Shown here in pieces: positions 1-14,053 of a DNA stretch of 14,053 bases. A program made the translations under genes and the position numbers. The first letter of the stretch is position 1, and each line of letters starts with the position of its first letter. Where the stretch lies: the IMG/VR virus record IMGVR_UViG_2617270944_000005; one strand, given 5' to 3'. The stretch is from a virus. Taxonomy: Duplodnaviria; Heunggongvirae; Uroviricota; Caudoviricetes. Below the pieces are notes generated by a model, which was given only the letters and a program-made list of their open reading frames with translations, made no database searches and was not told the origin of the DNA.

Positions 1-1236
1 CTACGATAACCGCGCATTCAACATGGCTATCTGTTCGTCGTTCATGTCATCAATCCACATACCGTAAATTTCATACACCATCTGCGCAGTTTCATGCCCC
101 ATTTGGCTGGCTATAAATGCCGGGTTCGCTCCTGCCGTCAACAGCCAGCAGGCAAAAGTATGCCGCGTATGGTACGGATTACGGCGGCGAATACCAGCAC
201 GTTTTACTGCTGCATTCCACCTTGCCCCCAAACTGCTTACCGAGTAATAAGGTTTTTGTTTTCCGTTACACACCCTGGGCATGAAAACAAAATGCAGTTT
301 TTGCTTTTCGGTTCTGCCGTACTCCCGATGATAAAAGGTGATTTCGCTTTTGCGATGATGCCCGGTCAGTTTGTATTGCTCCTTCAGTGCTTCAAGAGCA
401 GGCTGCAGTAGTGTTACTGTTCGGATCCCGGCATTTGTTTTTGGGGGACCGAACATATCAAGTATCGTCAGGTTTCTTCTGACATTCACTATTCCCTTTT
501 CGAGATCCACATCCTCCCACGCCAGAGCTGCCAGTTCCCCGTGACGAAGTCCTGAGTAAACGGCAAATTTCCACAAGTTCTGGCTCTGTCCTTTTTCACT
601 TTCCATTAATGCATTGAATTCTGTTTTAGATAACGGATCAGGCTTTATTCTGTTTCGCTGTAATTTTTTTACTCCTTCAAATGGTTTGGTTGATATAAAT
701 CCCGACTGATACGCAAAACGCAACAGCGAACAGAGCAGGGCGATATAGTTATCAACTGTGCGCACGGTTCTTCCTTTTTTGTTGGATCTTGGATTATCCA
801 GGTAAAGCGTTTCTCCATGCAGCAGTTCATTCCGGTAGTTTAAGATATCGCTATAACGAATATGTGATATCGGGGTACTTTCACAAATTATTATTCTGAG
901 TGTTTTTAATTGTGATTTCGTTTTCTTCATTGTGTTTGTTGTTAACTCTGTCTCTTTAATTTTTGTCCAGATATCACAAAGCTCTCCGAACGTTTTTATG
1001 ACTCTCGTTGTCACCATTTTTGCCCCAGTGCTGGACTGGGGAAAACGTCTTAAATACTCAAATTCACCGGAGTTTATTTCATGAACTATCAGCGCTCTTA
1101 AATTTCCGGCCTTTTTAATATTACTGTTTGTAATCTCCCAGCCTTTTAATGTTTCCCGACATCGTTTTCCTCGAAACATGAACCAGATGCGAATGTATCT
1201 ACCTCTAATCTCGACACCTGTTGGTAATTTAGACAT
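1..1236 (-). CDS. intR: Tyrosine recombinase / prophage integrase (Rac IntR-like), 411 aa
   Basis: Complete 411-aa ORF; N-terminus MSKLPTGVEIRGRYIRIWFMFRGKRCRETLKGW matches my recollection of Rac IntR; C-terminal region has the tyrosine recombinase catalytic residue pattern (HxxRHT...Y); stop codon is the first 3 nt of the window. Confidence 0.93.
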   Translation of the reverse strand: MSKLPTGVEIRGRYIRIWFMFRGKRCRETLKGWEITNSNIKKAGNLRALIVHEINSGEFEYLRRFPQSSTGAKMVTTRVIKTFGELCDIWTKIKETELTTNTMKKTKSQLKTLRIIICESTPISHIRYSDILNYRNELLHGETLYLDNPRSNKKGRTVRTVDNYIALLCSLLRFAYQSGFISTKPFEGVKKLQRNRIKPDPLSKTEFNALMESEKGQSQNLWKFAVYSGLRHGELAALAWEDVDLEKGIVNVRRNLTILDMFGPPKTNAGIRTVTLLQPALEALKEQYKLTGHHRKSEITFYHREYGRTEKQKLHFVFMPRVCNGKQKPYYSVSSLGARWNAAVKRAGIRRRNPYHTRHTFACWLLTAGANPAFIASQMGHETAQMVYEIYGMWIDDMNDEQIAMLNARLS

Positions 1237-1237
1237 A

Positions 1238-1453
1238 TCATGAGTCTTTGATAAACTGATTTATCTTTGGATAGTTGTACCAGATAATCCCTCGTTTGCT
1301 GTCTGGCTTACCTAAAGGAGATACTCGTTTGAAGTGGAAGCCCTCCACCCAACAGTTCTGGCGGTATGCTTCAATTTGTCTGGCCCCCAGACCAGTGCGA
1401 AGCATCAGGCCGTATTCAACCATCCACTCTTCATTAAAGATTACTTGTGCCAT
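1238..1453 (-). CDS. xisR: Excisionase-like protein (Rac YdaQ/XisR-like), 71 aa
   Basis: Immediately upstream of int on the same strand; start chosen at [10 protein letters not shown], which has a GAGGTG Shine-Dalgarno 6 nt upstream; the longer 79-aa ORF from 1477 lacks an RBS. Stop is 1 nt from the int start codon. Confidence 0.8.
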
Positions 1454-1531
1454 CGCATCACCTCTGGCAGGCGCCAATGTTAGACTGAAATTGACGCCCG
1501 ATGTTGATTATTAATAATCAGCTATGAAGTT

Positions 1532-1741
1532 TTAATTTGAATACAATGCAATTCTCGAGGACTGAAGTTTCTCGCAATTAAAATTTATCAGTTTTACTTT
1601 CTGCTCTCTGGAAACGCCTGCTTCTTTTTTACCTGAGAGCATTTTTTCGCATTCTGATTTCGTTAGTTTAGATTTTGAATATCTTGTCCAGTTAGTAGGA
1701 GTGCCACCTTCCTTTTCAATAGTGGCGGTAATTTTATACAT
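1532..1741 (-). CDS. ydaC: Small prophage protein YdaC-like (DUF1187-type), 69 aa
   Basis: Start chosen at MYKITATIEKEGG, preceded by a GGAGGTG Shine-Dalgarno; ORF track shows a longer 93-aa version from 1813. Start overlaps the ralR stop by 8 nt. Confidence 0.75.
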   Translation of the reverse strand: MYKITATIEKEGGTPTNWTRYSKSKLTKSECEKMLSGKKEAGVSREQKVKLINFNCEKLQSSRIALYSN

Positions 1742-1928
1742 GAACACCTCCATTATTATTTCCAGTGGTTCGTTTATTCCATCTTTCGAGTGCTTCTTTT
1801 TCACTTCCACCATAACCGGTTCGGGATTCGCATCCGTTACACTTCGCTCGGTAATATCCTGAAATGGCTTTCACCGTTACTGATGGACAACCACAAAATG
1901 GACATGGTTTAACATTGTCATATCTCAT
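1734..1928 (-). CDS. ralR: Restriction alleviation protein Lar / RalR (reported DNase toxin of a type I TA pair), 64 aa
   Basis: Sequence MRYDNVKPCPFCGCPSVTVKAISGYYRAKCNGCESRTGYGG with a CxxC...CxxC pattern matches the Lar/RalR family as I recall it; start taken at MRYDN (no strong SD, so the start is uncertain; in-frame alternatives at 1940 and 1967). Confidence 0.8.
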   Translation of the reverse strand: MRYDNVKPCPFCGCPSVTVKAISGYYRAKCNGCESRTGYGGSEKEALERWNKRTTGNNNGGVHV

Positions 1929-1984
1929 AATTTTTCTCATAAAAAATATTTCAAGTTGGCGGTGCATTACCCCGCCAGGCTGAA

Positions 1985-2794
1985 TTATTCCTCTGAATTA
2001 TCGATTACACTGTATTCCCCGGTTAATACAGAGGAATCTGCAGGATCGATTGTCAGTGGTTCCTTTTCATCCATTGATACTGCACGCTGGATCTCAATTG
2101 ATACGGGCAGATATTTGAACAGGCGACGAATAGCCGTTTTCTTTGCCATTTCTTCCCAGTGAGTTACCCACGGCCCGTTATTACCAGCTTTACTCAGGCT
2201 GCGCACCAGCTCAATCTGTTTGCGCGTCATAACTTCAAACTGAGTACCTCCGTCTTTCAGTCTTGCGACAGCATAGACGTGGGTAACCGGGGCATCTTCG
2301 TTTTCTCCCGGGCGGTGTATTAACTTTTCATCAAGGCCAAATTCGAAGCTAAACTCGTCACCTTCACGGACAACACGGGCTGACAGGCTGGCGATTTGAC
2401 CAGAACGGCGAGCCAGATCAATCATGCCGCGATAGCCAATGATTAGCTGAACGTTCTTTTTACCGCTCTTTTCGTTTTTATTACCAAAAGGCAGTAAATA
2501 TGCATGACCGAGGGCGCTACCTGGCTCAAGTCCGAGCTGTGAACACTGTACGATCGCACTGACAAAACTCATAGTGTCACAGTTTCCTAACGCCGGAACT
2601 TTACGAATTTCTGTGGTGGCGATACGGATCATACGTTCAGCCGTCATATGGCGTGGAAGAGCTGCTGCCAGTTGCTCTTTCATTGATGGCTGGTTAATAA
2701 AACTAATCACGTCGCTATTTTTAACTGCTGCTGGTGCACGGTTTCCCTGAGTTTTTTGCAGATCGGCTTTTGCGATTGGTGGTTGCTTAGTCAT
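1985..2794 (-). CDS. recT: Recombination protein RecT (single-strand annealing protein), 269 aa
   Basis: Starts [24 protein letters not shown], matching RecT; start is the third in-frame ATG of the 288-aa ORF; overlaps the recE stop by 8 nt. Confidence 0.95.
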
Positions 2795-5387
2795 TTGCAT
2801 ATTCCTTAGCCCAGCGGGGCAGTGATAATGTCTTAATAGCTGGCCATTCATCGGTATTCAGGCAGTCAGACAGGGTTCGCAGATTGCGGTGATATTCCTG
2901 TTGACCTGCCAGTTTTGCTTCTTCGCCCATCATGAAAATTTCAACCGGATAACGTCCGCATTCAATAGTTGTGCTGGCAACCAGAAAAACGAAAGTTGGC
3001 TGCACTCCAAACTGTGCTTCATAACCGTCACTGTAGAACGCATCCTGAACGTGATAGCGGTAGTCGTAATAAGCGGTTTTGAATCGTTGAATATCCGCCG
3101 TAGTTTTCACGTCCATGATCCAGTGAAATTCAGGGATAATTTTGTCCGGACGGCACCGACACAAAATTCCTGTTTCAGGATCTTCCCAGTAAATTGATGA
3201 TTCAGCGTGTCCGGCGCTTTCAACAAGCCATTGCCCCAGCGGCAAAGCCATAACGCTTTGATACATGAGTTCAATTTTCCGGCCTTCTTCCGCAGTGATA
3301 ACCGTTTTTCCTGTGCTTGCGCATTCCATCAGAAACGCTTTCTCTTCTTCTTTTCCGGCGTTTGTACGGCGGTTAAATTCAGGTGCTACGATAAAGCGGT
3401 TACTGAATTCTTCCGGTTCAAGTACCCGGCAGTGGAAAGCAGTTCCTAAATCGAGCGTTTTTGTCTTTGTGGTGTCCACGGGGGCATTTTTACGCCACAA
3501 ATATAGTGCCGGAGTATCAGCAATGTCATCGAGCTGAGACTTACTGATACCGGGACCCGCGTGGTAATTCTCATTCGAAATTCCGTAATAAATACCTGGC
3601 TCTATGTCTTCTACGATTACGGGATCTGCGACTTCGCCAGTTTCATCACTGCAATCGCGATGCGGATCGCTGCCAGCATTCTCATTGTGCGGATGTTCAG
3701 CGCCTTCCATTTCCTCCGGATCATTTTCCTTAGCTTCAACCTGACTCTCTTCATCGAATGTTTCCTGGTATGTTGCGTCGCCCATCACCGCACCACAGTC
3801 AGGGCAGTTATCCCCGCCAGTCTGGCCGCAGGCATTGCAGGCTATTTCCGGTTCCTGTTGCACTACTGGCTCAGGTTGATTCATATCTGGGCTGGTTTTT
3901 TCCGTTTCTGGCTGGTTCTGGTACACACAATCGCGAGTCTGGATCCCCTTTACCCATTTCGGATCGTTCGGGTCGCTAATTCCGTCAACAAATTCACCAC
4001 GTGATGCAGCAAGCAATTTATCGGCATCGACAGGATTTTTTGATGGAATGTTTTTCCGGGCTTCATGGAGTTCTGCCCGCAGTTCCTGATATTTCGCATC
4101 AACAGAATTTACCTGTGACTGAGCATCCAGCGGCTGCGTGTCCTGATGATGTTCAGTTGCGTCCGGTTCCATTGTTTCAGCCTCTCCCTGTTCAACTGCC
4201 GTTGTTCCAGATGGTTGCGGTTTTTCTTCATCATCCTGTTTTCCTTCTTCTGTTACTCGCTGCGGCATCGGGGCAGAGGAGCGACCGCAGGCAATATCCA
4301 CGATTTCCGGATCAGGGTTGGCATGATCGGTTTCAGTCAGTACTTTGTTCAGATATTCAGTGACGTGCGCGGGGATGACCTCGATCCCAATTGGTGCTTC
4401 TTTTACGGACGCAACCACGATGGCGCGGGAATAATCCAGCCCGCCAGGCATGGTGATGAATTTGTCGCGGAAAACAGAAAAGGGCGGTTTATTTTCAGCG
4501 ATAATTTCCTCAATGCGTTTAGCGTGTGCCGGATGAAGGTTATAGATGTCCAGATCCATTGAACGGGCCAGTACGCCAGTGGCTACGTCGCGCGCCAGTG
4601 ACGTCAGATCGTGTACGAAACCTTCGCCGCGATCGGTGAGGTTTCCGCCGCCAGCATTAGCACCGGAAGCCGTGCAAGTGATGTGTGAAACACGATTACC
4701 CTTCATCCACTCTTTTGTCAGCAGTCCTCGATCGGTGTAGTCAGCGTTCAGGTATGCTTCGAAAAAAGCAGTTATCAGTCCCAGGTTTGAATTACCAGGA
4801 TTAGGGAAAACTTTGTCAGTGTCACGAACCAGTTTGTGGAGTTCGCGAATTTCCAGCGGGTCGAGCAGGCTGGTTTTGTGGGAAACAGCCAGGGCAGTAA
4901 CAGCCGGTAGTTCTTCAGCCCGAGCAATGTGTAATGCCTGGAGTCCGTCGCGTGAAACGTGCGTTACCGGTTTTTCGCTGCCGTGTTGAGCAAGCCAACG
5001 AATGGGCAGTTCCTGGCCAGAAATTGGGAGTAGCATATTCTCCTCAATCTCAGTCATGTCTTCGCCGTTGACGTTGGTATTGCCTTGATAGTGAGCGTTG
5101 TCTGGTGCTGCTCCCGGTTTTAGTTCCCATGTCATGGAGTCTTTGCTGAGTTGATAGCGTTCACTCCAGGTAAAATCGATCTCACCTTCAGCGGGCAGGT
5201 CATTAACGACAGGAAAATTCGTGGCAACAGCTTTAAAATAGCTGCTCAGTTTTTTACCTGACTTAACGATCAGGTAGTCCAGAGTGGCACAGGTCGATTC
5301 AAAATCGTTGCTTGCCCACAGGACGACGTCAGGTTCACCGGATGATTTTTTCGCTTTCCGTAACAGGAAGAGTGGTTTTGTGCTCAT
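2787..5387 (-). CDS. recE: Exodeoxyribonuclease VIII (RecE), 866 aa
   Basis: 866-aa ORF starting [24 protein letters not shown]; acidic low-complexity central region and a conserved C-terminal nuclease part; directly upstream of recT as in the Rac recET operon. Confidence 0.95.
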
Positions 5388-5458
5388 TGTTTTTTAACCT
5401 CAACTCAGATTAAAATTCGTTTTGTTCAGTGAATGATCTTGCCGGATACACACTGTTC

Positions 5459-5483
5459 ATAGCCTGCGCCATACGCAGGCTAT
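5459..5483 (-). terminator. Perfect 10-bp stem / 5-nt loop hairpin at the racC-recE junction (possible terminator or RNA structure)
   Basis: ATAGCCTGCG-ccata-CGCAGGCTAT read directly from the sequence; lies 6 nt downstream of the racC stop on the minus strand. The T-rich run (TTCTTTCAGATTT) follows it on the plus strand, not the minus strand, so canonical intrinsic termination of the racC transcript is not supported. Confidence 0.35.
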
Positions 5484-5488
5484 TTCTT

Positions 5489-5764
5489 TCAGATTTCACC
5501 TTTTAATTTCATTGCAATTAGAGTTGCCAGAAATTCGGCTTTTTTTTCTGCGGGCAGATTCTTTCCGATATGCACCAGGCACATTTTTTTGACACCTTCA
5601 TCAAGTGTTTTTACGTTGCCTGATGGACCATCGATATCAACCACAGTGAATGGGGTTTCTTTATTTTCTGTTTTAATTACGTAGCCAATGCGCTTTCCTT
5701 CCAGATTCACCTCGTGAACAATGTCATCGGTAGTTACAACAGTGGCTTCATAATTGGTAATCAT
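5489..5764 (-). CDS. racC: Rac prophage protein RacC-like, 91 aa
   Basis: Start at MITNYEATVVTTDDIV with an AAGGAG Shine-Dalgarno upstream; located immediately upstream of recE as in Rac. Confidence 0.8.
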   Translation of the reverse strand: MITNYEATVVTTDDIVHEVNLEGKRIGYVIKTENKETPFTVVDIDGPSGNVKTLDEGVKKMCLVHIGKNLPAEKKAEFLATLIAMKLKGEI

Positions 5765-5838
5765 GTTTTTCTCCTTAATTAAGGTTGAGCGAATACCTGC
5801 CATTTCTGGCATAAATTCAGTTTCGAATAGTCAATTAA

Positions 5839-6009
5839 TTAAAGTTCATGTGCCATCTGGTCTTTTTCGGCACAAGCTTCACTGCAATATTTTCTCGGTT
5901 CGTCTTTTGATAAAATCCCGTGCATGAAGTGAAGCATTCTTTCAATAGCTTTGCTTTCTTCAACGTCTTTTTTGCAAAGGTGGTAAGCACATTTTATTTT
6001 CTTAGTCAT
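5839..6009 (-). CDS. ydaE: Small zinc-ribbon-like protein YdaE-like, 56 aa (absent from the ORF track because under 60 aa)
   Basis: Translated by hand from the minus strand: [56 protein letters not shown]; four Cys as CxxxxC...CxxxC; start ATG overlaps the kilR stop (TGATG). An in-frame ATG two codons upstream (6015) has GGAG 5 nt upstream and is an alternative start. Confidence 0.7.
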   Translation of the reverse strand: MTKKIKCAYHLCKKDVEESKAIERMLHFMHGILSKDEPRKYCSEACAEKDQMAHEL

Positions 6010-6230
6010 CACCATGACTCCGCCTTTACAGGTAAACCATCACGACCGAGGAAGACTTTAATCATGCGGTCAGTAATGAATGTTTTTGTGGTCAGGTTAC
6101 GAATATATAGTTTTCGCTTTTTAATATTGTTTGCCGAGGCAATATATGTCCGGCCTTCATGAAGAACATAATCGCCAGGAGTCACACACTGACGTGGTAT
6201 TTCATCAGTTCCGAAGTGATGTGCAATCAT
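6009..6230 (-). CDS. kilR: Killing protein KilR (cell-division inhibitor), 73 aa
   Basis: [35 protein letters not shown] matches KilR as I recall it; GGAG 8 nt upstream of the chosen ATG; ORF track shows a 77-aa version starting 4 codons earlier. Confidence 0.85.
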
Positions 6231-6671
6231 AATTATCTCCATTTTTACAAATGAACTTTGTTGATGCGGTGTCTGGTGCCTCCAGGTGACTGCAACCAGT
6301 TAACAATTACAGTCGGCTTTCCCACCCAAACCAATAAGGACTAACATGACTTTTAACTGTGCCACGTGCGCTTAGCCGCATTCACCGCATCACAAAATTC
6401 ACTTTAAAAAGGGCGGACATCAGCCGAACTTCAAGAAAAAAACTGATGCCGCCAGGACTACACACAGCAATGTCGTTATTTACAACCGGAGGCGCACTCC
6501 CTCCATTTAAATTTAACAGACAAGACCGACTCTTTATGGATATCGGAAATGCGCCTTCGTGTTGTGCCCGGTTTTATTTCACCACCTCCGGGCTTCGGTG
6601 GTCTCGGCTATACCCCTACAGCGAGAGCTTGTGTTAACATTTCAATACCCTTACAGTTGAGAGTTATTGAT

Positions 6672-7160
6672 ATGTTGGATGTATTTACTCCATTGTTGAA
6701 ACTTTTTGCTAACGAGCCACTCGAAAGACTTATGTATACGATTATCATTTTTGGTCTCACTCTCTGGCTGATACCGAAAGAGTTTACTGTCGCATTCAAT
6801 GCTTATACTGAAATACCTTGGCTCTTTCAGATTATCGTTTTTGCCTTTTCTTTCGTGGTCGCCATTTCCTTCTCAAGATTGCGAGCACATATTCAAAAGC
6901 ATTATTCATTACTACCAGAGCAACGAGTATTGCTTCGTTTATCTGAGAAAGAAATCGCTGTATTTAAAGATTTCCTTAAAACAGGAAATCTTATTATCAC
7001 TTCTCCTTGCCGTAACCCGGTTATGAAAAAATTAGAACGGAAGGGCATCATTCAACATCAGAGTGATAGCGCAAACTGTTCTTATTATCTCGTCACCGAA
7101 AAATACTCCCATTTTATGAAGTTATTCTGGAACAGCAGGAGTAGACGTTTTAATCGTTAG
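6672..7160 (+). CDS. sieB: Superinfection exclusion protein B (SieB), 162 aa, membrane protein
   Basis: MLDVFTPLLKLFANEPLERLMYTIIIFGLTLWLIPKEF with hydrophobic segments; the 203-aa ORF in the track starts upstream, but the start is placed at MLDVF to match the 162-aa SieB length I recall. Confidence 0.88.
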   Translation: MLDVFTPLLKLFANEPLERLMYTIIIFGLTLWLIPKEFTVAFNAYTEIPWLFQIIVFAFSFVVAISFSRLRAHIQKHYSLLPEQRVLLRLSEKEIAVFKDFLKTGNLIITSPCRNPVMKKLERKGIIQHQSDSANCSYYLVTEKYSHFMKLFWNSRSRRFNR

Positions 7161-7312
7161 CTTACTGTGTGCTTCTCCAACCATCGGCGCGCACCAGTTT
7201 CGGTTTTAAATGTTTTGCTTTTGGTATACGTCATGGCAGTGAACGTTCCATCCTGGTTGGGGAACACGCCGCACACCAGGGATTCGTTGTTGCCGAGGTC
7301 GATTTTTTGCAT
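7157..7312 (-). CDS. ydaF: Small prophage protein YdaF-like, 51 aa
   Basis: Hand translation of the minus strand: MQKIDLGNNESLVCGVFPNQDGTFTAMTYTKSKTFKTETGARRWLEKHTVS; 3' end overlaps the sieB 3' end convergently by 4 nt; position matches Rac ydaF between sieB and racR. Not in the ORF track (under 60 aa). Confidence 0.6.
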   Translation of the reverse strand: MQKIDLGNNESLVCGVFPNQDGTFTAMTYTKSKTFKTETGARRWLEKHTVS

Positions 7313-7322
7313 TTTGCGAATC

Positions 7323-7457
7323 TCACATCTTGTTGCTACGTATAGCGACTTCTGCCTGCCAGAGATCCCAGTCGTTGCTGCGTAAAGCCTGCACAGCCTG
7401 GTTGTAAGTGATACCGCAACAATCCATCAAATACTGAACTACTTCGTAATGCACCAT
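7323..7457 (-). CDS. ydaG: Small prophage protein YdaG-like, 44 aa
   Basis: Hand translation: MVHYEVVQYLMDCCGITYNQAVQALRSNDWDLWQAEVAIRSNKM; GGGGAGAG Shine-Dalgarno-like sequence 6-8 nt upstream; size and position match Rac ydaG. Confidence 0.55.
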   Translation of the reverse strand: MVHYEVVQYLMDCCGITYNQAVQALRSNDWDLWQAEVAIRSNKM

Positions 7458-7623
7458 CTTATCTCTCCCCTTAACGCCGGGTGGCGGAACTAACTGCTGC
7501 ACTGCAAAATTTGAATCCCGCCGTCATGTTCTTACGCCTCGGGCTGGCTACTTAACCCCTGACCACTGCCTGGTAACTCGAAGTATTGCCCTGCATTCTG
7601 TGGGGCGGGGTGGGTGGCAGGCA

Positions 7624-7671
7624 TATAATGTACTTTGTGTTCATTGTTGTAAAGTACATTTAGTACATTTT
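7624..7671. promoter_or_regulatory. Candidate leftward operator/promoter (OL-like): 10-bp inverted repeat AATGTACTTT / AAAGTACATT plus a third AGTACATTT copy
   Basis: Read directly: AATGTACTTT at 7627-7636 and its exact reverse complement at 7651-7660, 14 bp apart, with another AGTACATTT at 7662-7670; plus-strand TATAAT at 7624-7629; possible minus-strand -35 TTTACA (7648-7653) and -10 CATTAT (7625-7630) for leftward transcription toward ydaG. Confidence 0.4.
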
Positions 7672-7743
7672 ATGTGTAAAAAAATGAGATGGGATAAAGT
7701 GAAGCACAAACCCGGAGGAAGGCGCTACCGGATTTATGCTGGT

Positions 7744-8163
7744 TTAAGAGGCTTTTTGTTTTTTCTTTCGTGCTAACTCTTCGTAAATTGCATTGTACTT
7801 CTGTTTTTTCTCTTCAAGAGTTTTTAAAAGTTCATCTGTCTCACTGTCAGGGAGCTCGTCCAGAAGGTCAATGATGATTTTTTGTCTTGGATTTAACTCC
7901 TGATAGAAACGTACCTGTCCACTTTCTTCTGTATCCTCTCCCAAAAGATAGGTTGGTGTTGTTCCTATTAGTGTTGCTAATTCCCTTAATTTCTCCCGGC
8001 GAGGAATTGTTTCGCCATTAAACCATTTGCTAACCGCTTTTGGTGTTAATTTCATTCGACGGGCAATTTCTGCCTGCCTTCCATGTTGTTCATAACCAGC
8101 GTTTTCACAGGCTAGCGCAAGCCTACTGGCGAACTCTTTACGCGCTTTATCTTCATGAACCAT
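7744..8163 (-). CDS. racR: Prophage repressor, XRE-family HTH (RacR-like, cI analogue), 139 aa
   Basis: HTH region QAEIARRMKLTPKAVSKWFNGETIPRREKLRELATLIG; divergent from the cro-like ydaS; no alternative standard start upstream in frame before a stop. Confidence 0.85.
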   Translation of the reverse strand: MVHEDKARKEFASRLALACENAGYEQHGRQAEIARRMKLTPKAVSKWFNGETIPRREKLRELATLIGTTPTYLLGEDTEESGQVRFYQELNPRQKIIIDLLDELPDSETDELLKTLEEKKQKYNAIYEELARKKKQKAS

Positions 8164-8183
8164 AAGTTCAATGATATTCGCTC

Positions 8184-8218
8184 TTGAATGTACTGTCAGT
8201 TCTGTTATAGCATGTACT
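8184..8218. promoter_or_regulatory. Candidate rightward operator/promoter (OR-like) in the racR-ydaS divergent intergenic region
   Basis: Two copies of the same AATGTACT / ATGTACT motif seen at the OL-like site (8187-8194 and 8212-8218, 24-25 bp apart), overlapping a plausible -35 TTGAAT (8184-8189) and -10 TATAGC (8207-8212) for ydaS. Confidence 0.45.
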
Positions 8219-8242
8219 CAAAGTTCACATTGTGAGGGTGAT

Positions 8243-8497
8243 ATGAACCAGAAAACACTTGAAGATGTAATCAAAACTGTTCGCGTTGCTGTTGTGGCCG
8301 ACGTTTGTGGTGTCAGCCAAAGAGCAATCTATAAATGGATGGATAACGGAAAATTGCCTCGCACAGAATATACCGGCGAAACAAATTACGCTGAAAAAAT
8401 CGCTCTTGCATCAAACGGATTATTTTCTGCCGATGCAATTTTAACTATTGGCAGGAATAAAACTACTACGAAAAAGCTGATGGGAGTTGATTCATGA
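8243..8497 (+). CDS. ydaS: Cro-like HTH protein YdaS, 84 aa
   Basis: MNQKTLEDVIKTVRVAVVADVCGVSQRAIYKWM (HTH); start chosen at the ATG preceded by GAGGGTG; the ORF track's 108-aa version starts at 8171 inside the operator region. Stop overlaps the ydaT start (ATGA). Confidence 0.8.
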   Translation: MNQKTLEDVIKTVRVAVVADVCGVSQRAIYKWMDNGKLPRTEYTGETNYAEKIALASNGLFSADAILTIGRNKTTTKKLMGVDS

Positions 8498-8919
8498 AAA
8501 TCAAGCATGAACACATCCGCATGGCGATGAATGCCTGGGCGCATCCGGACGGCGAAAAAGTACCGGCTGCGAAAATTACCAAAGCGTATTTCGAGCTGGG
8601 AATGACGTTCCCGGAACTGTATGACGACAGCCATCCGGAAGCCCTGGCTCGCAATACTCAGAAAATTTTCCGCTGGGTGGAGAAAGACACCCCTGATGCG
8701 GTTAAAAAAATTCAGGCGTTGTTACCAGCTATCGAAAAAGCAATGCCACCTCTGCTGGTGGCCCGAATGCGCAGTCATAGCTCAGCCTATTTTCGGGAAC
8801 TAGTGGAGACGCGGGAACGACTGGTGAGAGACGCTGATGATTTTGTCGCAGTGGCGATCGCTGGTTTCAACCAGATGAATCGTGGTGGCCCTGCAGGAAA
8901 TATTGTGGCTGTGCATTGA
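8494..8919 (+). CDS. ydaT: YdaT (CII-like regulator, also reported as toxic on overexpression), 141 aa
   Basis: MKIKHEHIRMAMNAWAHPDGEKVPAAKITKAYFELGMTF matches Rac YdaT as I recall it; GGAG 8 nt upstream; translationally coupled to ydaS. Confidence 0.9.
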   Translation: MKIKHEHIRMAMNAWAHPDGEKVPAAKITKAYFELGMTFPELYDDSHPEALARNTQKIFRWVEKDTPDAVKKIQALLPAIEKAMPPLLVARMRSHSSAYFRELVETRERLVRDADDFVAVAIAGFNQMNRGGPAGNIVAVH

Positions 8920-8990
8920 CTCGCAATATTCATACCGGATCGCTTCCGGCAATTTGTGAGTAAAAAGATTCGGTATCAAAAGAGGTGAGT

Positions 8991-10061
8991 ATGGCTAACG
9001 CCTGGCTCAGATTATGGCATGACATGCCAAATGACCCTAAGTGGCGAACAATTGCCAGGGTGTCAGGGCAGCCAATTGCAACAGTGATGGCAGTGTATAT
9101 CCACCTCCTGGTGAGCGCGTCACGAAATGTCACGCGAGGTCACATTGAGGTCACGACAGAAGATTTGGCAAGTGCGCTCGACGTGACAGAAGAGGTAATT
9201 GATTCAATTTTGCAGACGATGCAGGGGCGGGTACTTGATGGTGATTTAATCACTGGATGGGAAAAACGCCAGGTGCTTAAAGAGGACAACGGCAATATTT
9301 CGCAAACCGCAAAATCTCCTGCAGAGCGCAAGAGGGCGCAGCGAGAGAGGGAAAGAAAGCGGGAACAAAATGGCGATTGTCACGGCGCGTCACGAAATGT
9401 CACGCATATGTCACGACGAGTCACGACAGATAAAGATACAGATAAAGATACAGATCAAGAAGATCAAAACACTATGGTCCATGGCGTAAAAAACGCCACG
9501 AACCAGGCAGGGGATGTTCAGACCGTCAATCTTGGTCAGCCAGCAGGCACGACACCGGAAGCCGATTCAGCGTATGCGCTGAAAGCCGATTCGGGCGCTG
9601 TGCAGCAGGTGATGACCGCAAGGCCGGAGCAATCACACCAACTGCAGCAGCCCGAAGCCGATTCCGCCATTCAGCGGGAAGCCGATCGGGTAGTCCCGGA
9701 AAACACCGGGCAGTCTGTGGGACGAGTGGATTATCCGGATGTGTTCGAACAGGTCTGGCGGGAGTACCCGTTGCGTGCTGGGGCAAACCCGAAGAAATCC
9801 GCTTTCAGTGCCTGGAAGGCCAGATTACGCGAGGGGGTGCCACCAGAGGCCATGCTGGATGGCGTGAGGCGTTACGCAAGATACTTGGCGGCTACCGGGA
9901 AAACGGGAACGGAATTTGTTCAGCGAGCGACGACGTTTTTTGGACCGGACCGGAATTTTGAGAACCCCTGGTTGCTCCCGGTAAGCGGCACGAACAACCA
10001 GCGTTGTGTGAATCATATTTCTGAACCGGATAACGAAATTCCGCCGGGCTTCAGGGGGTAA
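8991..10061 (+). CDS. Phage replication initiator-like protein (O-like / replisome-organiser-like), 357 aa, with intragenic iterons
   Basis: Position immediately after the cro/cII analogues; AAGAGG Shine-Dalgarno before the ATG at 8991 (the track's start at 8985 is a GTG two codons upstream); the gene contains two phased direct-repeat clusters, as lambda O contains ori-lambda; basic/acidic low-complexity linker; conserved-looking C-terminal domain (YPDVFEQVWREYPLRAGANPKKSAFSAWKARL). Family assignment is inferred, not searched. Confidence 0.7.
   Translation: MANAWLRLWHDMPNDPKWRTIARVSGQPIATVMAVYIHLLVSASRNVTRGHIEVTTEDLASALDVTEEVIDSILQTMQGRVLDGDLITGWEKRQVLKEDNGNISQTAKSPAERKRAQRERERKREQNGDCHGASRNVTHMSRRVTTDKDTDKDTDQEDQNTMVHGVKNATNQAGDVQTVNLGQPAGTTPEADSAYALKADSGAVQQVMTARPEQSHQLQQPEADSAIQREADRVVPENTGQSVGRVDYPDVFEQVWREYPLRAGANPKKSAFSAWKARLREGVPPEAMLDGVRRYARYLAATGKTGTEFVQRATTFFGPDRNFENPWLLPVSGTNNQRCVNHISEPDNEIPPGFRG
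9114..9154. repeat. Iteron-like cluster 1: four GTCAC(G/A) repeats at 10-11 bp spacing
   Basis: GTCACG at 9118, 9128, 9149 and GTCACA at 9138; includes the 21-bp unit GCGCGTCACGAAATGTCACGC (9114-9134), which recurs exactly at 9385-9405. Confidence 0.6.
9379..9452. repeat. Iteron-like cluster 2: five GTCACG repeats at 10-11 bp spacing, followed by a tandem 12-bp GATAAAGATACA x2
   Basis: GTCACG at 9379, 9389, 9399, 9410, 9420; tandem GATAAAGATACA at 9429-9440 and 9441-9452 (encodes DKDTDKDTD); together with cluster 1 a candidate replication origin. Confidence 0.6.
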
Positions 10062-10101
10062 GTGTTAATTTCTGGTCATGAGGTAATTTTCAGGAGGGCT
10101 T

Positions 10102-10524
10102 GTGGCAAAAGTTTTTACACAAGAAGAGCGGGAAAAAATTAAAGGGCAGGTTCTTGAACTCGTACGCCAGAGTGGGCGCGAGACGTTACGACAACTGGAA
10201 GCTAAAACTGGGGCAACAAGATATCTGATGAGCGTTCTGGCCAGAGAGCTGGTTGCCAGTGGCGATGTATACAATTCTGGCTACGGGTTATTCCCGTCTG
10301 AACAGGCTCGTAAAGACTGGCAAAATGCCCGCAAAAAATTATCGAGGGCAAAGCTGAAGAAACCGGTTGTGGTTGATCCGGACCTTATCTGGTCATTACC
10401 TGACGGAGAAATACGTCGCTACGACAGTCGCCTAAACATAATCTGTCGCGAGTGCCGGAAGAGCGAAGTTATGCAGCGCATATTGTCGTTTTATCAGGGG
10501 GATGTTCGGTATTTATTGAAGTGA
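10102..10524 (+). CDS. Hypothetical protein, 140 aa, in the position of a phage helicase-loader (lambda P analogue) but with no recognisable ATPase motif
   Basis: GTG start with a strong AGGAGG Shine-Dalgarno 4 nt upstream; no Walker A motif; lysine/arginine-rich segment (ARKKLSRAKLKK); one CxxC (CRECRK). Function not recognised. Confidence 0.65.
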   Translation: MAKVFTQEEREKIKGQVLELVRQSGRETLRQLEAKTGATRYLMSVLARELVASGDVYNSGYGLFPSEQARKDWQNARKKLSRAKLKKPVVVDPDLIWSLPDGEIRRYDSRLNIICRECRKSEVMQRILSFYQGDVRYLLK

Positions 10525-10858
10525 CGAGATTAAAGTGCATTAGTTCAGATGCAAATTGACATTTTGTGGCACAGGGTAGAGCTAGCGTGGTTGTCCGCTT
10601 TGTGCCAAGAGCAGACGCTGGTAATTCGTGCCTAATATACTTCACTTAACTTATATCCCAGCTTTGATACAGATCATACAAATTAAATGCCCCAGTAATT
10701 GGCAGGCTGAGTAACTTAAAACTCCTTAGAATATAGGATGATTTGTATCGGCACTCATTCCACCATGCATTCCGATTAACCCCGCATAGCCAGTTGAACT
10801 TTGCTACTCTGTGAGAGGTAGTACCTTCTATCCAGTGCGGATTTAATTAATGGAATAA

Positions 10859-13033
10859 ATGATTATGAGTGAAAATGATACAACCCCAAAGAAGTCTACA
10901 AGCCAGATTAACAAAGCGGTATTCTTTACATCTGCTTTGCTAATTTTCCTTCTTGTCGCCTTTGCCGCCGTATTCCCGGATGTCGCCGACAAAAATTTTA
11001 AACTACTTCAGCAACAAATCTTCACGAATGCCAGCTGGTTCTACATACTTGCTGTGGCCCTGATTTTACTGAGCGTCACGTTCCTTGGACTCTCACGTTA
11101 CGGTGATATAAAGCTGGGCCCAGACCATGCGCAGCCTGATTTCAGCTACCACTCCTGGTTCGCGATGCTTTTTTCGGCAGGGATGGGGATCGGCCTGATG
11201 TTCTTTGGCGTTGCCGAACCTGTGATGCATTATCTTTCGCCACCTGTCGGCACTCCAGAGACCGTTGCGGCAGCGAAGGAAGCCATGCGCCTGACGTTCT
11301 TCCACTGGGGTCTGCACGCATGGGCAATTTATGCCATCGTGGCGCTGATTCTGGCCTTTTTCAGTTACCGTCACGGTCTGCCTTTAACGCTGCGTTCTGC
11401 GCTCTATCCCATTATCGGCGATCGCATTTACGGGCCTATAGGCCACGCGGTTGATATCTTCGCCGTGATAGGCACTGTCTTTGGCGTTGCAACATCGCTG
11501 GGTTACGGTGTATTGCAGGTGAATGCCGGTTTGAACCATCTTTTCGGCGTGCCCATCAATGAAACGGTACAGGTCATTTTGATCGTGGTCATCACGGGGT
11601 TAGCGACGATTTCGGTGGTGTCCGGCCTGGACAAGGGAATACGCATCCTGTCTGAGCTTAATCTGGGCCTGGCGGTGTTGCTCCTGGCGCTGGTCTTGTG
11701 CCTGGGTCCCACTGTGCTTCTGCTGAAGTCATTTGTGGAAAATACGGGTGGTTATCTGTCGGAACTGGTGAGTAAAACGTTCAACCTTTACGCGTATGAA
11801 CCCAAGTCGAGCAACTGGCTGGGGGGCTGGACATTATTATACTGGGGATGGTGGCTTTCATGGTCGCCGTTTGTAGGTATGTTCATTGCACGCGTTTCCC
11901 GCGGCAGGACAATTCGTGAGTTCGTGACTGGCGTGTTGTTTGTTCCCGCCGGCTTTACGCTCATGTGGATGACGGTGTTTGGAAACAGCGCCATCTATCT
12001 CATCATGAACCAGGGCGCCACTGACCTCGCCAATACCGTTCAGCAGGATGTTGCGCTTGCCCTGTTTAATTTCCTGGAGCATTTCCCGTTCTCTTCCGTG
12101 CTGTCATTCATTGCAATGGCGATGGTCATCGTCTTCTTTGTAACGTCTGCTGATTCGGGGGCAATGGTTGTGGATACTCTGGCATCAGGTGGGGTGGCAA
12201 ACACGCCCGTCTGGCAGCGAATTTTCTGGGCATCGCTCATGGGCGTTGTTGCTATTGCCCTGCTGATCGCAGGGGGGCTGAGTGCGTTGCAAACCGTAAC
12301 GATAGCGAGTGCATTGCCCTTCTCAGTTATCTTATTAATATCCATATACGGACTGTTAAAAGCCCTGCGTCGGGATTTGACCAAGCGTGAAAGCCTTAGC
12401 ATGGCGACTATTGCTCCTACGGCTGCACGTAACCCAATTCCCTGGCAGAGAAGGTTACGCAATATCGCGTATTTGCCGAAGCGCTCTCTTGTGAAACGTT
12501 TTATGGACGACATTATCCAACCCGCCATGACGCTGGTTCAGGAGGAACTTAACAAGCAGGGAACGATAAGCCACATCAGTGACGCCGCCGAGGATCGTAT
12601 TCGCCTTGAAGTCGATTTGGGCAACGAGCTGAATTATATATATGAAGTGAGGCTTCGCGGGTATAACTCACCGACCTTCGCGCTCGCTGCGCTGGATAAT
12701 GATGAGCAGCAGAGTGAACAACATCGATATTATCGCGCTGAAGTCTATCTCAAAGAGGGCGGCCAAAATTATGATGTAATGGGCTGGAATCAGGAACTGA
12801 ACCGCCCCGGGTTTCCTGGAGAGTGTTTTATCTGTGAACTCAGGCTGCCAGATCATCGTTTCCGATGGAAGCATAATAAGCTTTTTCTGCTTCTGCCGGA
12901 GGAGTATGGCCCAGCCTTCCCAGCAATCGTCGATTGTTATACCAGTCCACCCACGTTAGTGTGGCCAGTTCCACTTCTGCACGGTTTTTCCAGCTCTTAC
13001 GGTGTATTACCTCCGCTTTGTAAAGACCATTGA
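10859..13033 (+). CDS. BCCT-family transporter, BetT-like (choline/osmoprotectant), 3' end interrupted by IS insertion; about 646 native residues followed by an IS-derived out-of-context tail
   Basis: BCCT signature GWTLLYWGWWLSWSPFVGMFIARVSRGRTIREF; collinear similarity to E. coli BetT along its length, including the cytoplasmic C-terminal domain, up to ...YDVMGWNQEL, where the IS terminal repeat begins (12798); roughly 30 residues of the expected C-terminus are missing. An alternative start is the ATG at 10865. Confidence 0.8.
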   Translation: MIMSENDTTPKKSTSQINKAVFFTSALLIFLLVAFAAVFPDVADKNFKLLQQQIFTNASWFYILAVALILLSVTFLGLSRYGDIKLGPDHAQPDFSYHSWFAMLFSAGMGIGLMFFGVAEPVMHYLSPPVGTPETVAAAKEAMRLTFFHWGLHAWAIYAIVALILAFFSYRHGLPLTLRSALYPIIGDRIYGPIGHAVDIFAVIGTVFGVATSLGYGVLQVNAGLNHLFGVPINETVQVILIVVITGLATISVVSGLDKGIRILSELNLGLAVLLLALVLCLGPTVLLLKSFVENTGGYLSELVSKTFNLYAYEPKSSNWLGGWTLLYWGWWLSWSPFVGMFIARVSRGRTIREFVTGVLFVPAGFTLMWMTVFGNSAIYLIMNQGATDLANTVQQDVALALFNFLEHFPFSSVLSFIAMAMVIVFFVTSADSGAMVVDTLASGGVANTPVWQRIFWASLMGVVAIALLIAGGLSALQTVTIASALPFSVILLISIYGLLKALRRDLTKRESLSMATIAPTAARNPIPWQRRLRNIAYLPKRSLVKRFMDDIIQPAMTLVQEELNKQGTISHISDAAEDRIRLEVDLGNELNYIYEVRLRGYNSPTFALAALDNDEQQSEQHRYYRAEVYLKEGGQNYDVMGWNQELNRPGFPGECFICELRLPDHRFRWKHNKLFLLLPEEYGPAFPAIVDCYTSPPTLVWPVPLLHGFSSSYGVLPPLCKDH

Positions 13034-13730
13034 TGCTCTCAGCCATCGCGTTGTCATACGAGTCGCCTGTACTCCCTGTTGATGCCAGTAATCCGGCTTC
13101 TTTTAGTCGCTCCGTATAGGCCAGTGACACATACTGAGAGCCTTTATCGCTGTGATGGATGGTGCCAGACGGACGACGGGCCCACAACGCCTGCTCCAGC
13201 GCATCCAGCACGAATGTCGTTTCCATAGACGATGAGACCCGCCACCCCACGATGTATCCGGCAAACACATCAATGATAAACGCCACATAGACGAAGCCCT
13301 GCCATGTGCTGACGTAAGTAAAATCAGCCACCCACAGCTGGTCAGGTCGTTCTGCCACGAACTGACGGTTTACGCGGTCGCCTGCGGCAACGGCTTTCCG
13401 GCTGATGGTCGTACGGACCTTTTTACCCCGGAGAACACCGGCAAGTCCCATAACCGCCATGAGACGTGCCACTGTACATCTGGCCACCCTGATTCCTTCC
13501 CGTAACAACTGACGCCAGACTTTACGCACACCGTACACCTGATGATTTTCATCGTATACGCGCTGTATCTCTCTCTTCAGCCAGTCGTCGTGCTGCGCAC
13601 GGGCACTGCGTTTATCCGGATGATGTCGCTGTTGCTGACAATGGTAATACGTTGACGGGGCAATATGCAGTTCGCTGCATACCGGTCCGACCCCGTACTG
13701 CTCACGCAGCTTATCCAGCAGTGGCATCAT
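12840..13730 (-). CDS. IS3-family transposase OrfB (DDE integrase-like catalytic domain), 296 aa
   Basis: DDE transposase hallmarks (WVADFTYV ... HSDKGSQY ... [15 protein letters not shown]); in the -1 frame relative to orfA, overlapping it by 4 nt. Confidence 0.9.
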
Positions 13731-14053
13731 TTTTTCCAGAGGCGGTCGAACTCCGCCTTCGCAAAATAAGCGGAAGCCTGGCGAAGGATATCGTTACTGC
13801 GGCGCAGTTCACGATTTTCACGTTCCAGCTCTTTCAGACGCTGACGTTCCGCGCTGGTGAGCCCACCATCACCGCCCCCGGTATCCCGCTCATGCTGGCG
13901 AACCCAGACACGCAGAGTCTCCGGCGTACAGCCAATCTTTGGGGCAATGGAACAAATTGCCGCCCACTGTGAGTCATATTCATCCTGACTTTCCAGAACC
14001 ATACGAATCGCCCGCTGACGGACTTCGGGGGAAAAACGAGTATTTTTAGTCAT
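13727..14053 (-). CDS. IS3-family transposase OrfA (HTH plus leucine-zipper region), 108 aa
   Basis: [30 protein letters not shown]... with a heptad-like [20 protein letters not shown] segment; ends in an A6 run directly before its stop, at the orfB overlap. Confidence 0.9.

Follow-up and report, generated by a model that had tools for sequence, protein, structure and literature searches.

The DNA analysed here, referred to throughout as the window, is a stretch of 14,053 nucleotides from IMG/VR virus record IMGVR_UViG_2617270944_000005 and is filled by a Rac-type prophage adjoining ttcA. The subject of this report is its replication region, which consists of a gene for a replication initiator that carries phased repeats within its own coding sequence and ends in a peptide resembling the C-terminus of the host protein DnaT, and of a gene for a 140-residue protein related to lambda Ren. 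The elements of this region are the following:

8991..10061, + strand: replication initiator, 356 amino acids (aa); full-length match to phrog_3729 'replication initiation protein' (E 2e-257)
8991..9275, + strand: N-terminal winged-helix domain of the initiator, aa 1-95, predicted by AlphaFold2 and presumed to bind the iterons
9119..9187: iteron cluster I, with GTCACG at 9119, 9129 and 9150 (+), GGTCAC at 9139 and an inverted copy at 9182 (-)
9372..9722, + strand: linker of the initiator, aa 128-244, predicted to be disordered (AlphaFold2 predicted local distance difference test, pLDDT, <50)
9379..9425: iteron cluster II, five copies of GTCACG at 9379, 9389, 9399, 9410 and 9420
9426..9474: A-rich stretch, presumed unwinding element, ~35% GC, with ACAGATAAAGAT present twice
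9475..9505: imperfect inverted repeat with a 13-pair stem, directly to the right of the A-rich stretch
9723..9980, + strand: C-terminal three-helix domain of the initiator, aa 245-330 (AlphaFold2 pLDDT ~90), presumed to recruit the helicase or its loader
10008..10058, + strand: DnaT-like tail of the initiator, VNHISEPDNEIPPGFRG, aa 340-356, near-identical to the C-terminus of host DnaT
10102..10524, + strand: DUF977 / 'LygF' / Ren-like protein, 140 aa; Pfam DUF977 (PF06163), E 2e-28; phrog_142

An earlier interpretation of this DNA made from its letters alone (the sequence-only reading) had described a 357-aa iteron-containing initiator; the initiator and the iterons are borne out, and the length is 356 aa when the ATG at 8991 chosen by the Prokaryotic Genome Annotation Pipeline (PGAP) is used, or 358 aa from an upstream GTG at 8985. 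PGAP names the product 'hypothetical protein', the NCBI cluster name is now 'phage replisome organizer', and the protein is 98.9% identical to 'DNA replication protein O' of phage vB_EcoS-689R5. Its C-terminal half matches phrog_1701 'DnaD-like helicase loader' (E 8e-63). A Pfam scan of the initiator gave no match, neither to the DnaT domain for binding single-stranded DNA (PF17948) nor to any other family. In a comparison with the DnaD/'phage replisome organizer' initiators of Firmicutes phages, the N-domain model TIGR01714 (PF09681) scored 14 bits against a cut-off of 49.8, and no match to a DnaD C-domain was found. The structure was predicted from a 30-sequence alignment, and in the resulting model the C-terminal tail is disordered. 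The proposal that the C-domain is a diverged PF17948 was rejected (hhalign of the C-domain family with the family bearing PF17948, probability 0.5%), and a search for homologs with the C-domain alone returned only fragments. Assignment to the K-12 YdaU type (DUF1376) was likewise rejected, PF07120 being found in YdaU (E 3e-26) and not in the initiator; the blastp match to YdaU is confined to the last 19 residues (68% identity). The linker contains a 36-nt imperfect direct repeat (PEADSA...) at 9555-9590 and 9651-9686 and is polymorphic in length; through insertion or deletion of whole blocks, the size of close homologs varies between 302 and 374 aa.

The hexamer GTCACG occurs 14 times in the window as compared to 5.6 +/- 2.4 expected, a number reached by none of 200 shuffles, and nine of the 14 copies fall within 9119-9425. 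The spacings in cluster II are 10, 10, 11 and 10 bp and are thus helical. Phased direct repeats therefore lie beside an A/T-rich stretch inside the initiator gene, as in an internal origin of the lambda O type, and the script used to find iterons recovered the annotated lambda iterons as a positive control. The succession of iteron array, A-rich stretch and inverted repeat corresponds to the layout of lambda ori, with the repeat at the position of the lambda ori palindrome.

The two clusters follow the N-terminal domain and not the remainder of the protein. Both are found in all close relatives of the N-domain, including O157 P0332, whatever the C-domain; cluster I is also found in the Pseudomonas phage P7869, and cluster II is kept in phage Tritos, P7869 and the Yersinia, Serratia, Salmonella and O157 homologs with any C-domain. 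Genes with other N-domain types lack GTCACG clusters. P0296-type initiator genes have AAGGGGCTT in place of GTCACG, with 2 + 3 copies at the two corresponding sites, and the mEp460 initiator gene has GGTCAAAATG iterons. The iteron sequence co-varies with the N-domain type, suggesting that the N-domain binds the GTCACG iterons. The P7869 initiator is 69.5% identical at the amino-acid level and its gene is 81% identical at the nucleotide level over the origin, with AGATAAAGATACAGA kept as far as the homology extends. In this Pseudomonas aeruginosa phage (locus L091, 4110-4490) the homology to the E. coli prophage stops right after the A-rich stretch, beyond which the gene has a different C-part and is followed by a primase/helicase gene. 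Each N-domain type has its own iterons in two clusters ~250-270 nt apart (the window; L104, 3501-4610; L007, 2495-3460), and the first cluster sits in a variable loop of the region coding for the N-domain.

At its other end the initiator resembles DnaT, and this likeness is confined to a tail of 17-24 residues. The host tails are VNTVSEPDSQIPPGFRG in E. coli and INSVSEPDNHIPPGFRG in Klebsiella. The tail matches the DnaT C-termini in PDB entries 6aep, 2ru8 and 9zbt (E 0.003-0.07), the only match obtained when the initiator was compared with PDB chain sequences, and positions 156-179 of the NCBIfam DnaT model (E 7e-4). A DnaT-like tail also ends K-12 YdaU and the initiators of mEp460, 75/02 and SfV; the C-domains of YdaU and mEp460 are otherwise unrelated to that of the window initiator.

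When the tails were compared with the genes adjacent to the initiators, 21 module types fell into the following groups:

DnaT-like tail (IPxGF[RK]G) with an adjacent DnaC-like (IstB_IS21) gene, 9 types: K-12 YdaU, 75/02, P0335, P0347, P0352, P0363, P0306, P0379 and a 58% variant of mEp460 type
DnaT-like tail without a loader, 6 types: the window, P0296, mEp460, SfV, P0295 and P0383
Lambda-O-like [LIV]D...DW tail with a P-like gene, 6 types: lambda, Rac-SA53, P0375, P0334, P0332 and L086

No crossed pairing of tail and loader was found among these 21 types. Redundant IMG/VR loci fit the same rule in 52/52 and 76/76 cases; these 128 loci were collected by searching with YdaV and lambda P, are nearly all near-identical to these queries and therefore have little independent weight. 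The most telling cases are P0375 (Yersinia) and P0334 (Serratia), which combine the N- and C-domains of the window initiator with an O-like tail and have a P-like gene next to the initiator. From this comparison we suggest that the loader pathway can be predicted from the final ~17 residues of an initiator, a DnaT-like tail pointing to the DnaC-type or host pathway and an O-like tail to the P-type pathway. This rule is an interesting and testable by-product of the module comparison. Many O157-type prophage initiators (P0320-P0382; locus L103) combine an N-domain of GTCACG type with a true DnaT domain PF17948; they end in an O-like LDCPDW tail and have a P-like loader next. The occurrence of the DnaT domain with an O-like tail in these proteins indicates that DnaT domain and DnaT tail are used separately.

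The gene for the 140-aa protein starts with GTG, has AGGAGG 5 nt upstream and is named 'DUF977 family protein' by PGAP. The protein scores 99.4 bits against DUF977 (cut-off 22.1), residues 1-135 covering model positions 1-133 of 134. Of the 116 profile positions of PHROG 142 'Ren-like exclusion protein', it matches 1-113 (E 4.7e-45) and lambda Ren itself (sequence from J02459) matches 11-110 (E 1.6e-41). A DUF977 profile made without Ren scores lambda Ren at 28.1 bits, so that the homology holds independently of PHROG. Phage records name the DUF977 protein 'LygF' or 'Ren-like exclusion protein'; the family is small, with 99 representatives at the 50% identity level in a collection of 1.84 billion proteins. 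In the AlphaFold2 model a confidently predicted winged helix at aa 7-64 is followed by a further helix, a disordered segment and, at the C-terminus, two short helices; the C-terminus has the conserved motif N.[IV]C.ECR.S..M.R[VI]L. Foldseek matched this model to nothing more specific than generic winged helices of GntR/MarR type (best E 0.03), and a comparison with PDB chain sequences returned nothing.

The sequence-only reading had regarded the 140-aa protein as an unrecognised one without Walker A/B motifs that could be an analogue of lambda P. The missing motifs can be read directly from the sequence. The protein is not unrecognised, being a DUF977 member that shares PHROG 142 with lambda Ren, and the profile searches and structure prediction that had been proposed as a check yielded the DUF977/Ren family, a generic winged helix and no loader match. 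In scans with Pfam, NCBIfam and PHROG, neither this protein nor the initiator matched P (PF06992), DnaC/IstB (PF01695) or DciA; in the controls PF01695 was detected in YdaV and the P-like phrog_109 in the YdaV of Rac-SA53. K-12 YdaW was considered as the DUF977 counterpart and rejected, as it is a DUF1627 protein without a blastp match to the 140-aa protein. No + strand terminator was found between the initiator gene and the 140-aa gene, and a scan for promoters and terminators gave nothing above shuffled background. A literature search on the PPGFRG motif, DUF977, LygF and phage Tritos returned nothing usable.

DUF977 genes occur both with and without a loader gene. In Rac-SA53 the order is ydaU, P-like ydaV (phrog_109), DUF1627 ydaW and lygF; in the Shigella phage 75/02 Stx it is initiator, DnaC-like gene, a 256-aa protein and LygF; at the P0363 locus an IstB-like gene is followed by DUF1627 and DUF977; and lambda has both P and Ren. 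Among 80 IMG/VR loci with a DUF977 protein at least 92% identical to that of the window, a window-type initiator lies directly upstream in about 50 and the mEp460 type in about 20, and an initiator with a loader and DUF1627 is present in 10 (five of the K-12 YdaU/YdaV type, four DnaC-like, one P-like). A loader-less Salmonella module encodes a 109-aa protein that matches PHROG 142 (E 6e-13). Because DUF977 genes are found with P-like, DnaC-like or no loader, the 140-aa gene occupies the ren slot whatever the loader type. No loader or helicase is annotated anywhere in the complete genome of Tritos, and none was found near the modules of mEp460_ev081 and SfV. A DUF1627 (YdaW-like) gene (L009, 2723-3484; L006, 4858-5628; L105, 5408-5914; L099, 5258-5986) separates the loader from DUF977 in all E. 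coli modules seen to have a loader; it is absent from loader-less E. coli modules, and in the loader-less locus of Salmonella it comes after the Ren-like gene.

The replication cassette belongs to a larger exchanged block. The window is 99.96% identical to E. coli strain 504838 over 1-12797 and 99.87% identical to K-12 Rac DNA over 1-7617, after which the match to K-12 Rac ends. From 7466 to 10624 the window is without DNA similarity to K-12 Rac and 96.8% identical to phage Tritos (complete, 46.4 kb), which carries these five genes, identically ordered. The exchange therefore takes in the entire immunity and replication region, ~7617-10624, with its left breakpoint at 7617 upstream of the repressor gene and its right breakpoint at ~10624. 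These data agree with the sequence-only reading in that the replication module differs from that of K-12 Rac (a YdaV homolog is absent and the match to YdaU is limited to the terminal residues described above), in that K-12 has ydaU followed by the DnaC-like ydaV, as the K-12 comparison confirms, and in that the arrangement reflects lambdoid module exchange. They disagree with it on the extent of the exchange: the switch had been placed after ydaT with everything to the left matching Rac, and K-12 identity already ends at 7617, the repressor, cro-like and YdaT-like genes being non-orthologous replacements. At least 80% of the 1.8-kb region is present in 1540 complete E. coli genomes, and the cassette is also found in complete phage genomes and several vB_Eco phage records. 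The finding is thus one of ordinary lambdoid mosaicism with a cassette that is already widespread, and both cassette proteins belong to families that have already been named.

Compared to lambda O-P-ren, the cassette shares the order of a cII-like gene, initiator gene and Ren-family gene, the intragenic origin with iterons, A/T-rich stretch and inverted repeat, and apparently the logic by which the N-domain sets origin specificity and the C-terminal end matches the loader type. It differs from lambda in that a P gene is absent, in that the N-domain of the initiator appears to resemble the DnaD N-terminal domain and replisome organizers and no sequence match to lambda O was found, in that the initiator ends in a DnaT-like tail whereas lambda O ends in D..DW, and in that the Ren homolog has 140 aa with an extra central segment whereas lambda Ren has 96 aa. 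K-12 Rac has the same prophage backbone, the same attachment site beside ttcA and, in YdaU, the same DnaT-like tail; however, YdaU has a DUF1376 N-domain and a C-domain unrelated to that of the window initiator, and K-12 Rac has the DnaC-like YdaV (IstB/DnaC-like AAA+) and a fragment of the DUF1627 gene ydaW and has lost the DUF977 gene, which Rac-SA53, a fuller Rac relative, retains after ydaW. With host DnaT (protein i) the last 17 residues are near-identical (VNxxSEPDxxIPPGFRG) and the rest is unrelated, although other prophage initiators with the N-domain of the window protein do carry the DnaT domain PF17948; the tail is disordered in both proteins, as predicted for the window initiator and as predicted or reported for DnaT.

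Combining the observed gene families, domain layout, origin anatomy, co-variation of iterons with N-domain type and association of tails with loaders, we interpret the region, with moderate confidence, as a lambdoid replication cassette of an 'initiator plus ren' kind that lacks a helicase loader of its own and in which the C-terminal end of the initiator leads to the host pathway and the 140-aa protein is accessory. In this model, the N-terminal winged helix would bind the GTCACG iterons within the initiator's own gene, the initiator would open the adjacent A-rich stretch, and the C-terminal three-helix domain together with the DnaT-mimicking tail would connect the origin to loading by host DnaT/DnaC/DnaB, host DnaC being used where the phage supplies none; the 140-aa protein would share a transcript with the initiator. 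Helicase recruitment most likely proceeds via the C-terminal end of the initiator to host DnaB/DnaC. The 140-aa protein is probably no new helicase loader; it belongs with lambda Ren, may act as an accessory factor at the interface of replication and exclusion, and should not be pursued as a new loader.

More tentatively, and with somewhat less than an even chance of being right, we propose that the DnaT-like tail (SEPDxxIPPGFRG) is a portable docking peptide that joins the origin-bound initiator to the host DnaT/DnaC/DnaB pathway. Docking could occur by direct binding to DnaC or to DnaB-DnaC, or the peptide could occupy the site of the DnaT tail on the DnaT core; the tail could also merely oligomerise the initiator. 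In a weaker variant of this proposal, proteins of the Ren family would assist the docking step when a phage loader is absent. According to a 2026 paper on the preprimosome (PMC13377028), it is not known how DnaB/DnaC are recruited by DnaT, and phage initiators that copy the tail of DnaT alone therefore provide a natural handle on this question. If the tail is a docking peptide, this would explain how phages manage without a loader gene, and the tail would be the long-sought element for the handover from DnaT to DnaB/DnaC.

Several points weigh against the interpretation of the region as an 'initiator plus ren' cassette linked to host helicase loading. The association of tail and loader could reflect linkage, the 3' end of the initiator gene and the loader gene forming one recombination block. 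The C-domain of the initiator has no match among solved structures, and the viability of Tritos and similar phages is read from their complete genome records. The 2026 paper suggests the N-domain of DnaT, and not the tail, as the recruiter of DnaB/DnaC (PMC13377028), and loss of the last 18 residues converts DnaT from a trimer to a dimer (Szymanski 2013, as summarised in PMC5314882), trimerisation being the one published role of the DnaT tail that was found. Together with the reported contribution of the DnaT tail to cooperative binding of single-stranded DNA (PMC4132743), the latter result is what would be expected if the tail only served to self-oligomerise the initiator on the iterons, with the helicase being recruited by another surface or by transcriptional activation. 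We consider this unlikely: self-oligomerisation leaves unexplained why the tail is absent from initiators paired with P-like loaders and why the same host-like 17-mer is found on three unrelated C-domains. A further point on the negative side is that a Ren-like gene directly follows the initiator in four of the six loader-less types (the window, the P0296 type, mEp460 and Salmonella P0295), so that the 140-aa protein may have a part in replication.

This last arrangement, in a cassette without a loader gene, would fit a 140-aa protein that serves as a functional counterpart of lambda P by linking the initiator to host DnaB. In favor of such a role, Thomason et al., who cite suppressors of ren in O and P and report two-hybrid signals for Rex-Ren and Rex-O, call lambda Ren 'likely involved in DNA replication'. 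The poor growth cited for ren mutants, however, is growth in Rex+ lysogens, and this implies that Ren is dispensable for growth as such. Moreover, the DUF977/Ren family also follows loader-bearing modules (lambda, Rac-SA53, 75/02, P0363 and ten of the 80 IMG/VR loci) and is missing from the loader-less SfV and P0383 modules, and the 140-aa protein is unlike P, DnaC and DciA with a generic winged helix as its sole confident fold. The claim that it is the helicase-recruitment factor is thus unsupported, and we regard it as improbable. Alternatively, the cassette could be a decayed remnant in which the loader was lost by deletion and the reading frames are no longer competent for replication. Related modules carry DnaC-like genes, and the window prophage itself is defective, with a transporter gene and an insertion sequence in the window and tail-gene remnants in strain 504838. 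Yet the near-identical arrangement in Tritos stands in a complete phage with a full set of structural genes and recurs in several vB_Eco records, both open reading frames are intact and conserved in the many E. coli genomes noted above, and in about 66 of the 80 DUF977 loci the initiator lies directly upstream of DUF977 with no loader. We therefore regard decay as very unlikely and favor the cassette that depends on the host for helicase loading.

The remainder of the exchanged block consists of three genes of the immunity region:

7744..8163, - strand: repressor, 139 aa, with a DicA-like helix-turn-helix (Pfam HTH_3, E 2e-9)
8171..8497, + strand: cro-like helix-turn-helix gene (phrog_35)
8494..8919, + strand: YdaT/CII-like gene, 141 aa (Pfam YdaT_toxin, E 1e-9; phrog_163 'CII-like', E 4e-45)

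The repressor scores E 2e-15 against the NCBIfam DicA subfamily, which is under the cut-off of that model, and its identification as RacR was rejected, the match to RacR spanning only 33 residues. The open reading frame of the cro-like gene encodes 108 aa and the PGAP version is shorter (84 aa); the protein has no significant match to K-12 YdaS. By blastp, the YdaT-like protein shares 33% identity with K-12 YdaT.

Beyond 10624 the window carries cargo. A gene for a BCCT-family transporter (10859-13033) occupies the place of trkG in K-12 Rac, and its 3' end is interrupted at 12797/12798 by an IS3-family element (12798-14053) with rve and HTH_Tnp_1 reading frames on the - strand. In strain 504838 the tail-gene remnants lie to the right of the cassette, and the window prophage is clearly defective. 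The read-through open reading frame of the transporter gene is 724 aa in the window as compared to a protein of 665 aa in strain 504838.

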